A model generated the notes under the pieces. That model did not search any database and was not told the DNA's origin. It saw nothing but the letters and a program-made list of their open reading frames with translations. 64,000 nucleotides of DNA, from assembly GCA_024226315.1 (NCBI GenBank), contig JAAELT010000577.1, positions 12,032 to 76,031 of the forward strand, given 5' to 3'. This document shows positions 16,293 through 63,813 of the stretch, in pieces (the first letter of the stretch is position 1; each line of letters opens with the position of its first letter). The position numbers and the translations under genes are program-made. The stretch is from a bacterium (GTDB taxonomy: Bacteria; Acidobacteriota; Thermoanaerobaculia; Multivoradales; J023).

Positions 16293-16392
16293 TTACTCGA
16301 CGACGAAGGTCTGGAGCTCGACCGGGGCCATCGAGTTGGGCACGCTGTCGAAGTAGACGTCCCCCCGCGTGTCGCCGCTGACCTGCCGAAAA
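16293..16392 (-). repeat. diverged partial copy (about 100 bp) of the 3' end of the BNR-repeat gene (original at 19058..19156). It encodes ...SGDTRGDVYFDSVPNSMAPVELQTFVVE*
   Basis: 16293-16392 aligns with 19058-19156 at about 85% identity, in frame and ending in the same stop. No gene body lies upstream of it; the region is intergenic. Confidence 0.7.
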
Positions 16393-16442
16393 CTGGAGGA
16401 TCTATTCGTGGCTTTGCCCCACTGTAACGTTAAGATCGTCCC

Positions 16443-17792
16443 ATGCGCAACATCCTCGTGCTCGGCGCCGGCCATAGCGCCACCTACCTGATCCGCCATC
16501 TGCTCGAGCAGGCCCAGGAGCGGGAGTGGTTCGTCACCGTCGGCGACCGCGACGGCGAGCTGGCGGCGCGGGCGGTGGACGGCCATCCATGTGGCGACGG
16601 CGTTGCCTTCGACGTCAACGACGCCGAGATGCGCGCGGCGCAGATAGAGGAGGCGGCGGTGGTGGTCAACCTGCTGCCGCAGCATTTCCAGAGCCTCCTG
16701 GCCTGGGATTGCCTGCAGCACGGGCGGCACCTGGTCTCGGTGTCCTACAAGGACCGGCGCATGGACGAGCTGGAGCGCGACGCCCGGCGCAAGGGCGTGC
16801 TGATGCTCACCGAGATCGGGCTCGATCCGGGCATCGACCTGATGTCGGCGATGGCGGTGATCGGCCGGGTGCAGGAGGCGGGCGGCGTGGTGAGGAGCCT
16901 CGAGTCGTACGGCTCGGGCGTGCCCGCCCCGGAGGTGGACGCCAATCCGCTCCGCTACGCCATCACCTGGAACCCGCGCAACGTCGCCATGGCCGGTGAG
17001 CAGGGCGCCCAGTACCTCGAGCATGGCGAGATCAAGATCGTCCCCTGGCACCAGATCTTCCATCACACCTGGCGCAAGGAAGTCGCCGGATTCGGCCCGA
17101 TGGAGGCCTACCCGAACCGCGATTCCCTCTCCTACCGCGACAAGTTCGGCATCTCCGACGCCGAGACCCTGATCCGCGGCACCCTTCGTTACCCCGGCTG
17201 GAGCGAGACCTGGCACCAGATCGTGCGCCTGGGGCTGCCGAACGAGAACATCGCGATCCCGAACCTCGAGCGGCGCTGCTTCCGCGACATCGTCGAGATG
17301 TTCCTGCCGCGCAGTGTCTCGGGCTCGGGCGTCGAAGGCCGCTTTGCCAACTACCTGGGGATCAGCGAGACCGGCCGCATCATGGACAACCTGCGCTGGC
17401 TCGGCCTGTTCTCCGCGGAAGTCCTCGGAATCGAGGGCTCGACCGCCACCGACGCCCTGATCTTCCTGCTCGAGCGCAAGCTCGCCCTGCCCGCGGACGG
17501 CCGTGATGCCATCATCCTGCTGCACGAGGTGATCGCCCGCTATCCCGGCGAGAACGGCCGCGAGGAGCGCATCACCTCGACCCTCGTCCACTACGGCGAG
17601 CCCGGCGGCACGACGGCGATGGCCAGAACGGTGGGGCTGCCGGCGGCGGTCGCCATCGAGCTGCTGCTCGCCGGCGAGCTGCCGCTGACCGGCTGTCACA
17701 TCCCCACCCATCCGGCCATCTACCGGCCCATCCTCGACCGGCTCGAGGCCGCGGGCCTGAGCTTCGACGAAACGGTCGAGCCCGGCGGCTGA
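16443..17792 (+). CDS. saccharopine dehydrogenase (NADP-binding Sacchrp_dh family)
   Basis: N-terminal Rossmann fold MRNILVLGAGHSATYLIRHL. Family blocks LLPQHFQ...VSVSY, GLDPGIDLM and ITWNPRN are present. Confidence 0.8.
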   Translation: MRNILVLGAGHSATYLIRHLLEQAQEREWFVTVGDRDGELAARAVDGHPCGDGVAFDVNDAEMRAAQIEEAAVVVNLLPQHFQSLLAWDCLQHGRHLVSVSYKDRRMDELERDARRKGVLMLTEIGLDPGIDLMSAMAVIGRVQEAGGVVRSLESYGSGVPAPEVDANPLRYAITWNPRNVAMAGEQGAQYLEHGEIKIVPWHQIFHHTWRKEVAGFGPMEAYPNRDSLSYRDKFGISDAETLIRGTLRYPGWSETWHQIVRLGLPNENIAIPNLERRCFRDIVEMFLPRSVSGSGVEGRFANYLGISETGRIMDNLRWLGLFSAEVLGIEGSTATDALIFLLERKLALPADGRDAIILLHEVIARYPGENGREERITSTLVHYGEPGGTTAMARTVGLPAAVAIELLLAGELPLTGCHIPTHPAIYRPILDRLEAAGLSFDETVEPGG

Positions 17793-17812
17793 AGCGAACG
17801 CGGGGGAGAAAG

Positions 17813-18952
17813 ATGTCACGTCTCGTCACCGGCGTCGTCGGCACCTCGTCGAAGGAGAACGAGCACCGCCTGCCGATCCATCCCCGGCACCTGGACAGGA
17901 TCCCCGAGGCGGCGAGGGCGAGCCTGCGCCTGGAACGTGGTTACGGCCGGCGCTTCGGCGTTGGCGACGTCGAGCTCGAGGGCTTCTGCGGCGGCCTGCT
18001 GACGCGCGAAGAGATCCTCGCCGGCTGCGACGTGGTGGTGCTGCCCAAGCCGGTCGAATCCGACTTCGAGGCGATGCGCGACGGCGGCGTGCTGTGGGGC
18101 TGGCCGCACTGCGTGCAGCAGCGGCGGGTGACCCAGCTGGCGATCGACAAGCGGCTGACCCTGATCGCCTTCGAGGCGATGTTCCGCTGGCGCCGGCCGG
18201 GCCGGCGCGGCGTGCACGTGTTCGCCAAGAACAACGAGCTCGCCGGCTACTGCGCGGTGCTCCACGCCTTCGAGCTGCTGGGGATCGACGGCCACTACGG
18301 GCCGCGCCGGCGCGCCGCCGTGCTCGGGTTCGGCTCGGTCAGCCGCGGCGCCGTCTACGCGCTGGAGGGCCGCGGCGTCACCGACATCACGGTCTACACG
18401 CAGCGGCCGCCGCACCTGGTGCGCGACCAGAAGCTCGGCGGCGTCCACTTGCAGATGCGGCGTGGCGACGGCGGCAGTATGGAGGCCGTGCGCGCCGACG
18501 GTTCGGCGACCCCGCTGGCCGCCGAGCTCGCCCGCGCCGACGTCATCGTCAATGGCACGCTCCAGGACACCGACCGGCCGCTGATGTACCTCCCCGAGGG
18601 GGAGGAGGCGAGCCTGCGGCCCGGCAGCCTGATCGTCGACGTCAGCTGCGACCTCGGGATGGGCTTCTCCTTCGCCCGCCCGACCACCTTCGAAGACCCG
18701 ATCTTCCGCGCCGGCAAGGCGACGTATTACGCCGTCGATCACACCCCGACCTACCTGTGGGACGCCGCCAGCTGGGAGATCTCCGAGAGTCTGCTGCCGT
18801 ACTTCGGCACGGTGACGGGCGGCCCCGAGAGCTGGCGCGAGGAGCCGGTGATCGACCGCGCGATCGAGATCCGCGGCGGCGTGATCGAGAACCCGAAGAT
18901 CCTGAGCTTCCAGCGGCGGCGGGCGGAGTACCCGCACCCGCTCCGCCGGTGA
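17813..18952 (+). CDS. alanine dehydrogenase/PNT-fold enzyme; likely lysine-ketoglutarate reductase / saccharopine dehydrogenase (L-lysine-forming) partner
   Basis: NAD-binding block AVLGFGSVSRGAVYALEGRGV in an AlaDH/PNT-like architecture. It sits 20 bp downstream of the Sacchrp_dh gene on the same strand. Confidence 0.7.
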   Translation: MSRLVTGVVGTSSKENEHRLPIHPRHLDRIPEAARASLRLERGYGRRFGVGDVELEGFCGGLLTREEILAGCDVVVLPKPVESDFEAMRDGGVLWGWPHCVQQRRVTQLAIDKRLTLIAFEAMFRWRRPGRRGVHVFAKNNELAGYCAVLHAFELLGIDGHYGPRRRAAVLGFGSVSRGAVYALEGRGVTDITVYTQRPPHLVRDQKLGGVHLQMRRGDGGSMEAVRADGSATPLAAELARADVIVNGTLQDTDRPLMYLPEGEEASLRPGSLIVDVSCDLGMGFSFARPTTFEDPIFRAGKATYYAVDHTPTYLWDAASWEISESLLPYFGTVTGGPESWREEPVIDRAIEIRGGVIENPKILSFQRRRAEYPHPLRR

Positions 18953-62482: not shown

Positions 62483-63091
62483 ATGCCTCCATCGACACCG
62501 AGCCCCTCGACGGTCGCGTACCTGCACGCGCATGGTTTGCAGGTCACTCCGGAGCAGTTGGACGGCCTGGTCCAGGAGGCGATCGACCGTCTGCAGCAAG
62601 AGCTCTTTCGCTCCGATCCGCGGCGCGAGCTCTCCCGGGAGGAGATCGAGATCCTGGAGGCCGGAGGATTCGACCTCGAGCCCGTCGACCTGGGCGGCGA
62701 GGATCCCCTCGCGCGAGCGGCGGCGCTCTATTCCGGGCTGCTCAAGACCAGTCTCGACACCGCCGCCGCGGCGCGGCTGCTGGGAGTCGATCCGAGCCGC
62801 ATACGGCATCGGTTGACGTCTCGTCCGCCGAGCCTCTACGGAATCCGTCTCGGGTCGGGGTGGCGCCTGCCGCGCTTCCAGTTCGACGGCGAGAGACTCG
62901 TTCCCGGCATCGGCGAGGTGGTGGCGGAGCTCGATCCCGAGCTCCATCCCGCGACAGTCCACAACTGGTTCGTCTCGTCCAATCCAGACCTCGTGGCCGA
63001 GAGCCTCGCCGAAGGGCTGCTGAGCCCGCGCGACTGGCTGTGTCACGGATTCCCGCCGCGAGCCGTCGCCGCGCTGGCGAGGCATCTGTAG
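62483..63091 (+). CDS. putative Xre/MbcA/ParS-like antitoxin partner of the RES toxin (HTH-containing)
   Basis: Lies immediately upstream of the RES gene (15-bp gap). HTH-like AAARLLGVDPSRIRHRLTSRPPSLYGIRLGSGWRLPRF. The gene-order convention is antitoxin then RES. Confidence 0.45.
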   Translation: MPPSTPSPSTVAYLHAHGLQVTPEQLDGLVQEAIDRLQQELFRSDPRRELSREEIEILEAGGFDLEPVDLGGEDPLARAAALYSGLLKTSLDTAAAARLLGVDPSRIRHRLTSRPPSLYGIRLGSGWRLPRFQFDGERLVPGIGEVVAELDPELHPATVHNWFVSSNPDLVAESLAEGLLSPRDWLCHGFPPRAVAALARHL

Positions 63092-63106
63092 CCAGATTCG
63101 ACGCAG

Positions 63107-63730
63107 GTGCCCAGGTTTCCGGAGCCGCCGACGGACGCGGAGCTGGCCGAAAGCTCGCCCGAGCGGAAGATTCTGCCGGCCGGCACCCTGCTCTGGCGCG
63201 TGTACTTCCGGGGCGGAGATCATCCGACGTACTGGGATACCTTCCGCTCGTTCGGCCCCACGACCGGCCGGTTCGATCATCACCCGCCGCCGTCTTCGGT
63301 GCAGGAGCGGAGAATCTTGTACAGCGCCGAGCAGGGCCTGACCTGCCTCGCGGAAGTGTTTCAGGACAGCAGGATCATCGATCGAACGGCTCGCAAACCG
63401 TGGATCGTCGCCTTCCGCACCCGGCAGGACCTGACGCTGCTCGATCTGACGGGCGACTGGCCGACGCGAGCCGGCGCCTCCATGGTCATCAGCTCCGGGC
63501 CGCGGCCTCGGGCGCAGCGTTGGTCGCGAGCGATCTACTCCGCGTTCGCGGACGTCGACGGGCTCTACTACCCCTCTTCCATGGCGGCCAGCCGCCCTGC
63601 TCTGGCGCTCTACGAGCGCGCCGGGTCGGCGATACCCACCGCTCCTGCCTTTCACCGGCCGCTGTCGGATCCCACGCTGCTCACGTTGCTGCGCAACGCG
63701 GCGCGGGATCTGGGCTATGCCGTGCTTTGA
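63107..63730 (+). CDS. RES-domain toxin (NAD+-targeting RES family)
   Basis: LWRVYFRGGDHP...GRFDHHPP (R). ILYSAEQGLTCLAEVF (E). WIVAFRTRQDLTLLDLT (S). Order and spacing match the RES consensus. Confidence 0.75.
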   Translation: MPRFPEPPTDAELAESSPERKILPAGTLLWRVYFRGGDHPTYWDTFRSFGPTTGRFDHHPPPSSVQERRILYSAEQGLTCLAEVFQDSRIIDRTARKPWIVAFRTRQDLTLLDLTGDWPTRAGASMVISSGPRPRAQRWSRAIYSAFADVDGLYYPSSMAASRPALALYERAGSAIPTAPAFHRPLSDPTLLTLLRNAARDLGYAVL

Positions 63731-63813
63731 AGAGCGGCCACGAAGCGGTGGGTAGGAAAAAATCCTCGCAGCTTGCCGAAGTCGAGTAGCCGCTGGAAAG
63801 TCCCAGCCGGCGC

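Follow-up and report, generated by a model that had tools for sequence, protein, structure and literature searches.

Cassettes set between an intact gene and a copy of its own 3' end, with no linked recombinase found, in an uncultured Acidobacteriota lineage

We analysed a 64-kb stretch (the window) of contig JAAELT010000577.1, a 131,934-bp contig from a metagenome-assembled genome (MAG; protein accessions MCP3962978-MCP3963009) whose relatives belong to the Acidobacteriota/Thermoanaerobaculia. Three genes in the window, encoding a BNR repeat protein, a SpoIID-domain protein and an RND permease, share one layout: the intact gene is followed straight after its stop codon by a cassette, and beyond the cassette the gene's own 3' end recurs in frame. 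There are four such insertion blocks at the three target genes within 48 kb, two of them forming a tandem array at the RND locus; toxin-antitoxin pairs make up most of the cargo, beside a TPR gene and a two-gene operon. A previous sequence-only reading of this DNA had claimed that three unrelated genes display the same gene-cargo-tail topology, and the repeats and gene identities hold by BLAST, alignment and Pfam, as does the mutual independence of its targets. The pattern is thus confirmed as real. The same reading counted three loci with in-frame tails diverged by 10-15%; the reading frame was borne out, while the count rises to four blocks with the RND tandem and the divergence widens to 6.5-15%.

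Repeats were located by repeat detection, pairwise alignment and self-BLAST of the 64-kb window. Repeat detection and self-BLAST yielded four strong non-paralogue direct repeats, all of them gene/tail pairs, with self-BLAST E-values of 3e-19 to 2e-103 (within the 64 kb). Every distal copy lies on the same strand as its parent gene and retains the frame and the stop codon, with zero indels; across about 690 nt of summed distal tails there is neither an indel nor an internal stop. Gene and tail differ by 6.5% to 15% over the four repeats. Similarity ends 0-3 nt past the stop codon in all four, and begins at differing internal positions. The displaced ends are not toxin domains; their amino-acid identity to the resident tail is 83-89%, falling to 72% in the short tail b of the RND locus. 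Blocks measure 1.06-2.7 kb, with gene-to-repeat spacers of 0-178 nt and no gene fragments at the block edges. The window has a GC content of 66.7%, and real genes are clearly marked by their codon-position GC. By GC content at third codon positions (GC3), most cargo is foreign in composition (0.69-0.83, with the exception of the locus 1 operon, against 0.91-0.95 in the target genes).

The RND locus (locus 3) holds the tandem array. Its target is the second of two RND genes in an MFP-RND-RND operon, and its features are as follows.

54602-57703, plus strand: RND (AcrB-type) permease, intact target gene (Pfam ACR_tran, 2.5e-184)
57454-57704, plus strand: gene-attached repeat copy, the last 83 codons of the RND gene
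57705-60087, plus strand: cargo 1 block, one TPR gene
57882-59999, plus strand: TPR-repeat protein of 705 amino acids (aa) (Pfam TPR_2/TPR_1; GC3 0.78)
60088-60338, plus strand: tail copy a, 251 nt, 83 codons and stop, 87% identical to the gene
60339-62273, mixed strands: cargo 2 block, toxin-antitoxin genes
60368-60607, minus strand: HicA (Pfam HicA_toxin, 2e-11)
60608-60946, minus strand: HicB-like (weak Pfam match)
about 60864-61112, minus strand: UPF0175 antitoxin-like open reading frame (ORF) (Pfam UPF0175, 1e-20)
about 61500-61740, plus strand: MazE/AbrB-like antitoxin (Pfam MazE_antitoxin, 5e-6)
61740-62207, plus strand: VapC/PIN toxin (Pfam PIN, 4.5e-5)
62274-62354, plus strand: tail copy b, 81 nt, 26 codons and stop
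62453-63730, plus strand: protein without assigned family and RES toxin, a pair beyond tail b (Pfam RES, 6.5e-14)

The order gene, cargo 1, tail a, cargo 2, tail b is that of an intact gene followed by ordered displaced 3' fragments with linked genes. Tail a differs from the gene at 14 amino acids with zero indels (self-BLAST E = 3e-83), and tail b is 85% identical to the gene and 82% identical to tail a. Just past the RES toxin gene, at the window edge, perfect hairpins with an 11-bp stem, TCCAACCGACC-N10-GGTCGGTTGGA, occur at 63815-63846 and 63941-63972, a spacing of 126 nt, with a partial third from about 63983; the rest of the window has none (0 expected by chance). This array could be an operator array, a repetitive extragenic palindromic (REP)-like element or the start of another element.

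Locus 2, at the SpoIID gene, carries a single, compact toxin-antitoxin block.

36352-38595, minus strand: protein with SPOR and SpoIID/LytB domains, intact target gene (Pfam SpoIID, 1e-25; SPOR, 3e-13)
36351-36613, minus strand: gene-attached repeat copy, the last 87 codons of the SpoIID gene
35292-36350, minus strand: cargo block, 1,059 nt, with spacers of 75 and 70 nt
35844-36278, minus strand: Phd/UPF0175-like antitoxin (Pfam match under the curated cut-off)
35362-35841, minus strand: PIN/DUF3368 toxin (Pfam match under the curated cut-off)
35029-35291, minus strand: distal tail copy, 263 nt, 87 codons and stop, 91% identical

A 246-nt core of this tail is 93.5% identical to the gene, again with zero indels (self-BLAST E = 2e-103), and GC3 is 0.75 in the cargo against 0.91 in the host gene. 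In a search with the toxin, its closest non-self homologue is only 60% identical. Directly after the tail lies a small stand-alone winged-helix ORF (Trans_reg_C, CadC-like; 34585-34977, minus strand) of atypical codon composition, suggesting that this site took up another accessory insertion.

Locus 1 lies at the BNR gene (GC3 0.92). Its cargo is a two-gene lysine-catabolism operon, convergent with the target gene and host-typical in composition (GC3 0.93-0.95).

19058-20647, minus strand: BNR/sialidase-like repeat protein, intact target gene (Pfam BNR_2, E = 2e-7; its 30.9 bits fall just short of the Pfam cut-off of 31.4 bits)
19055-19147, minus strand: gene-attached repeat copy, the last 30 codons and stop of the BNR gene
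16383-19054, plus strand: cargo block, two genes
16443-17792, plus strand: saccharopine dehydrogenase (Pfam Sacchrp_dh_C, 2e-64)
17813-18952, plus strand: AlaDH/PNT-like (lysine-ketoglutarate-reductase-like) gene (Pfam AlaDh_PNT_C/N)
16290-16382, minus strand: distal tail copy, 93 nt, 30 codons and stop, 89% identical

Between the cargo genes and the repeats there are spacers of just 60 and 102 nt. The tail copy has four amino-acid differences and zero indels (self-BLAST E = 2e-28). A metagenome scan with the BNR protein returned four distant loci (39-66% identity), none with saccharopine-pathway genes nearby, a result that says little on locus 1. Two further features adjoin this locus. A 66-nt REP-like palindromic element occurs in three copies (6723-6788, 6766-6831 and 16197-16262), the last of which sits 30 nt past the tail copy. 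Directly upstream of the BNR gene, a 98-aa ORF and an AAA_21 (AbiEii-like)/SMC_N ATPase (20644-22310) form a possible defence module.

The gene-cargo-tail structures are not an assembly artefact, because separate contigs reproduce the junctions of loci 2 and 3 and a relative assembled as a circular long-read contig has a like structure. At loci 2 and 3, three contigs of metagenome assembly GCA_024449835.1 (L071, L072 and L073) match the window at 99.9-100% identity across the junctions from stop codon to cargo, from cargo to tail and from tail to downstream sequence. L071 runs from the SpoIID end through the toxin-antitoxin block and the tail into downstream sequence, and matches the window at 100% for 1,973 nt. 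L072, which has 4 mismatches in 3,364 nt, extends from the RND end over the TPR gene and tail a to HicA, and L073, which has 1 mismatch in 1,775 nt, extends from MazE/VapC over tail b into downstream sequence, so that the junctions of cargo 2 at locus 3 are covered by these two contigs. All three are possibly from the same or related samples, which makes the assembly independent and the reads not necessarily so, and a second contig was seen for loci 2 and 3 only, with none for locus 1. Collapse on reassembly, the outcome that the sequence-only reading had named as telling against its claim, is contradicted by these contigs and by the long-read relative.

Beyond its identical part, L071 changes allele. 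Over positions 1974-2219 (window 34209-34454), 29 of 246 sites differ, 19 of them at third codon positions, and the switch falls in the 3' part of the M14 peptidase gene (32745-34646) that neighbours locus 2. The switch marks the edge of a recombination tract between lineages that co-occur and are about 12% apart, or else the contig is chimeric. A lineage or allele diverged by about 12% shares the metagenome and is a plausible donor pool.

The nearest relative (L001; ERZ25072999 ctg322095), a circular 9.3-Mb long-read contig, has an RND orthologue that is 82% identical. There, the intact gene is followed by an 85-nt spacer, a toxin-antitoxin pair (an ORF without assigned family and a PIN gene) and a decayed RND fragment. 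The fragment corresponds to gene positions -440 to -271, starts straight after the PIN stop codon, is 89% identical and has acquired an in-frame TAG and a 1-nt deletion. Within the same 23-kb locus, a degraded VapBC-like module, made up of an 81-aa ORF and split PIN fragments, lies between 190-nt direct repeats of 97% identity (16299-16488 and 17743-17932) that extend across an acetyltransferase gene's start. This repeat pair is the same phenomenon at a gene 5' end.

Elsewhere the pattern is scarce. Orthologous RND loci were collected from species-representative genomes of Acidobacteriota (n = 66), of which 53, including L001 and L002, had downstream sequence. A downstream copy of the RND 3' region was present at one of the 53, that of L001. 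The other 52 have a single tail and no such cargo, as do the SpoIID orthologues of two relatives (L003 and L004); these relatives are only 51-86% identical and not conspecific. Apparent tail copies in many relatives were rejected, as the long match spans represent the upstream RND paralogue. A generic repeat scan of 1.18 Mb of RND loci also found very few comparable structures. Given the single case among the RND loci, the lack of SpoIID tails in L003 and L004 and the few repeats in 1.18 Mb, the phenomenon is therefore concentrated in the lineage of the window and its nearest relative. In L003 and L004 the toxin-antitoxin module is missing from the SpoIID locus along with the tail, and an IstB-like gene adjoins SpoIID as in the window. 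The window's IstB-like ATPase (38608-39549) was rejected as a mobility gene, since it adjoins SpoIID in these two relatives too and has no IstA partner.

Among the structures that the repeat scan did return is one at positions 13078-15547 of locus L014, from a related MAG, where a 581-aa DDE_Tnp_1 transposase (13424-15169, minus strand) lies between 279-nt direct repeats of 93.5% identity. The orthologous RND gene's stop codon is exactly where the first of these repeats starts, and the element may be an IS1634-like long target duplication. Across loci L005-L070, from Thermoanaerobaculia MAGs, synteny past the RND gene is often broken at the stop codon or 60-130 nt before it. Such breaks occur even at 83-88% nucleotide identity, while other pairs are collinear for more than 1.5 kb. 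The 3' end of the RND gene is therefore a variable hot spot or recurrent breakpoint.

Comparison of the two copies bears on which is native. Where gene and tail mismatch, the gene copy has A/T and the distal copy G/C at 29 sites, against 13 in reverse (binomial p = 0.02, on small counts), and the direction is the same at three of three loci (6:1, 8:3 and 15:9). Distal copies have a host-like GC3 of 0.94-0.97 and gene-attached copies 0.87-0.93 (0.97 versus 0.87 at locus 1; 0.94 in tail a versus 0.89 at locus 3). A pseudogene under the usual AT-biased mutation pressure is expected to show the opposite polarity. The distal copies are also slightly nearer to outgroup orthologues in four of four comparisons. 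Over their common 81 nt, tail a, tail b and the end of the RND gene all lie at about the same distance from one another (81-85% identity) and are not nested by age. With three weak lines in agreement (the GC polarity, the outgroup distances and this equidistance) and no indels or stops at 7-15% divergence, the comparison suggests that the distal copy may be the native end and that the gene-attached tail may have arrived with the cargo.

We detected no integrase, transposase, resolvase or reverse transcriptase in Pfam scans of about 55 ORFs covering the window, so the absence of a linked recombinase from view, also remarked on in the sequence-only reading, holds for the ORFs scanned. Searches of the window found no tRNA, tmRNA or Rfam family, and a tRNA, tmRNA or known RNA family as target was rejected accordingly. 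Terminal inverted repeats at the cargo ends scored at or under random expectation; a transposon with such repeats was thus rejected. Elements of the IS1634/IS1549 type need a DDE transposase and terminal inverted repeats, and the window blocks yielded neither, so that they do not fit an IS1634-type transposon. A diversity-generating retroelement was rejected on the lack of a reverse-transcriptase domain and on mismatches that involve all four bases and are not adenine-specific. The blocks do not fit integron gene cassettes either, with no IntI integrase among the scanned ORFs and no motif or hairpin shared by the cargo ends. The common att-like core for which the earlier reading had proposed to check the tails did not emerge: none of the candidates common to the four repeat boundaries rose above random expectation. 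Identity at the start of each repeat extends for 11, 21, 12 and 5 nt. At the RND gene the 5' boundary of the repeat falls at -250 and -81 in the window and at -440 in the nearest relative, and these differing boundaries at the same gene argue against one fixed attachment core.

The topology itself is not unprecedented, though rarely described, and the suggestion that it marks a poorly described route of gene accretion was overstated: three known systems share it. The first is insertion with long target duplication, in which restriction-modification (RM) systems are inserted without mobility genes and the repeats often span stop or start codons (PMC2853133; Nobusato et al. 2000, Gene 259:99; Furuta, Abe & Kobayashi 2010). 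The reported repeats of RM systems are 46-423 bp long, and most published ones are at least 93% identical, with both copies matching the empty site (PMC2853133). A later review states long target duplication for RM systems and not for toxin-antitoxin systems (PMC3874152). In common with our blocks are a small insert without mobility genes, target direct repeats of tens to hundreds of bp, an intact target gene and addiction-type cargo. By the measures of Furuta et al. (2010), the direct repeats here exceed 30 bp (93, 263, 251 and 81 nt) and the inserts are under 20 kb, with no other mobile-element genes. The window differs in that its cargo comprises type II toxin-antitoxin genes, a TPR gene and a metabolic operon rather than RM systems; its repeats are wholly coding and stop at the stop codon instead of running into the spacer; its copies are 7-15% diverged, with a polarity suggesting that one was imported; one gene carries a tandem array; and the host is an uncultured Acidobacteriota/Thermoanaerobaculia lineage.

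In the second system, integration of e14 or phage 21 in icd leaves a C-terminal pseudogene, icdC (Hill, Gray & Brody 1989; PMC13626634). There too, the element brings a diverged replacement for the last codons up to the stop codon, the native tail persists beyond it as an in-frame pseudogene fragment, and excision would recreate a chimeric gene. However, e14 is about 15 kb long and has its own integrase and a fixed attachment core, whereas the window blocks are 1.06-2.7 kb long with variable boundaries and no recombinase found. The third comprises Rhs C-terminal displacement and the effector-immunity arrays of type VI secretion systems (T6SS), attributed to homology-facilitated illegitimate recombination (Jackson et al. 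2009; Kirchberger et al. 2017, PMC5361080). As here, a conserved gene body serves as homology anchor, a new 3' end arrives with linked genes and old ends are pushed downstream in order, with no recombinase. What is displaced in the Rhs/T6SS arrays is a variable toxin domain with its immunity gene, whereas here it is the conserved, homologous tail of a housekeeping-type gene, and the cargo lies past the stop codon. Insertion sequences of the IS1634/IS1549 type also have long variable direct repeats (cited in PMC2853133). They resemble our blocks in target duplications of tens to hundreds of bp, with a possible case beside the same gene in L014, and differ in their need for a transposase and terminal inverted repeats. 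The window stands apart by its toxin-antitoxin and metabolic cargo, wholly coding repeats that reach the stop codon, diverged copies with polarity, a tandem array, four blocks in 48 kb and an uncultured host.

We tentatively favour, at a little short of even odds, a recombinase-independent, homology-anchored displacement of gene 3' ends as the explanation of the cassettes. Incoming DNA from a relative diverged by about 7-15% would carry a cassette behind the end of the same gene, and would pair with the resident gene through that homologous end. The imported replacement tail would complete the gene, and the resident tail would be pushed past the cargo and left as a non-functional remnant. Integration might proceed by Campbell crossover once a fragment has circularised, or by the homology-facilitated illegitimate recombination put forward for Rhs/T6SS arrays (PMC5361080); we infer both the recombination pathway and the donor. 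Survivors would be the events in which the target gene stays whole, and this selection would therefore bias the insertions to gene ends. Addictive toxin-antitoxin cargo would resist later deletion, and repeated events at one gene could build tandem arrays such as that of the RND locus. Homology-anchored displacement is favoured as accounting for the variable boundaries, the arbitrary targets, the lack of a recombinase, the polarity and the arrays. It was also one of two mechanisms offered in the sequence-only reading, and it fits better than the other, a relaxed integrase seeking 3' ends, to which the variable boundaries, the missing core and the apparently native distal copies run counter.

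Several observations weigh against this explanation. All four repeats stop within about 3 nt of the stop codon, which generic recombination does not predict and which is typical of site-specific elements of the e14/icd type; under homology-anchored displacement such sharpness would need erosion of the spacer over repeated replacements at a hot spot, or a selected replacement tail. The tightly trimmed cargo blocks suggest defined units rather than random breakpoints. Donor and recipient are hypothetical, the single-tail loci compared being those of more distant relatives. Runs of identity between the copies are short today (24-47 nt). The presence of a downstream copy at only one of 53 RND loci means that the process is rare or confined to this lineage. 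The recombinase scan covered 64 kb of the genome, and an integrase may lie elsewhere. The counts behind the GC polarity are small, and a codon-position test of gene versus tail lineage, suggestive with two outgroups, gave 15 versus 15 changes with seven.

The strongest alternative, which we consider distinctly less probable than displacement by homology, is that the blocks are non-autonomous or decayed site-specific integrative elements, similar to cis-mobilizable elements (CIMEs) or of the e14/icd type, whose tyrosine or serine recombinase is encoded elsewhere or lost. Integrase-less, CIME-type derivatives of integrative elements exist. Each cassette would bring a replacement 3' end, from the crossover core to the stop codon, and the toxin-antitoxin genes would remain since addiction blocks their loss. 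Element e14 in icd, with the icdC pseudogene beyond it, has exactly this topology (PMC13626634), the repeats end sharply at the stop codon, the cargo blocks are tight and a run of identity opens each repeat. Tandem accretion at the RND gene resembles attL-attI-attR arrays, and a polarity that puts the imported tail on the gene and leaves the native one distal fits equally well. However, no recombinase domain was found among the scanned ORFs of the window, and at least three specificities would be needed within 48 kb with every enzyme missing. The tandem copies differ in 5' extent (251 versus 81 nt) and the nearest relative adds a third boundary, and the boundaries have neither a core nor inverted-repeat arms in common. 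Blocks go down to 1.06 kb with spacers of at most 75 nt, and random deletion of a larger island is unlikely to have trimmed both sides so closely.

Less probable again is a true long target-site duplication formed in situ, by staggered breaks or two template switches in replication, with the copies then diverging in place; an IS1634-type transposase acting in trans is a possible agent. The empty-site comparisons of RM systems, in which both repeats match the single-copy target (PMC2853133), are in its favour. So are the young case in the nearest relative, where 190-nt repeats at 97% identity lie across a gene start with a degraded VapBC-like module between them, and the L014 transposase between 279-nt repeats that start at the RND stop codon. 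The changes in the tail lineage are also even over codon positions. Yet the window blocks have neither terminal inverted repeats nor a transposase, and the distal copies are GC-richer and not more diverged from outgroups, whereas AT-biased neutral decay predicts copies that are AT-richer and more diverged. Divergence of 7-15% without indels or stops is also hard to reconcile with decay in place, and the supposedly younger tail a is no nearer to the gene than the older tail b over their shared 81 nt.

It is doubtful that this lineage, related to the Thermoanaerobaculia, has an undescribed, dedicated route of cassette capture, working through a trans-acting enzyme or a host repair pathway. Such a route would amount to an 'integron without attC' with gene 3' ends for its recombination sites, and would set promoter-bearing toxin-antitoxin or operon cassettes, each with a replacement tail, exactly at the stop codons of arbitrary genes. 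That strain variants of one population were joined in a chimeric MAG contig is the most remote explanation of all: the source is indeed a MAG contig, a lineage about 12% diverged co-occurs and L071 switches allele part-way, but reads would have to span both non-homologous junctions of each block, identical runs between the copies do not exceed 47 nt, and the same junctions recur at loci 2 and 3 in L071-L073 at 99.9-100% identity and the same kind of structure in the circular 9.3-Mb long-read relative.

How toxin-antitoxin modules and small accessory operons move without an attached mobile element is largely unexplained. The sole systematic account of long target duplication without a recombinase concerns RM systems, and the mechanism there is unexplained as well. 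With four blocks in 48 kb, more in the nearest relative and diverged strains that co-occur in the metagenome, the lineage would be a good natural system in which homology-anchored illegitimate recombination, Campbell-type integration of circles and trans-mobilisation by an integrase could be told apart. In practical terms, annotation readily turns in-frame tail fragments into small genes, of which L071 has a case, and short-read assemblies can be broken by them.

Two other features of the window lie away from the three loci. A 43-nt repeat of 88% identity (4663-4705 and 11372-11414) lies close to the 3' ends of a pair of minus-strand ORFs, an ECF sigma factor (Sigma70_ECF, 4e-63) among them; the repeat probably reflects paralogue conservation and not a tail copy. 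An RHS-repeat protein, encoded by an 886-aa ORF, and the 131-aa ORF that overlaps and follows it (11638-14690) are likely a polymorphic toxin/immunity pair.

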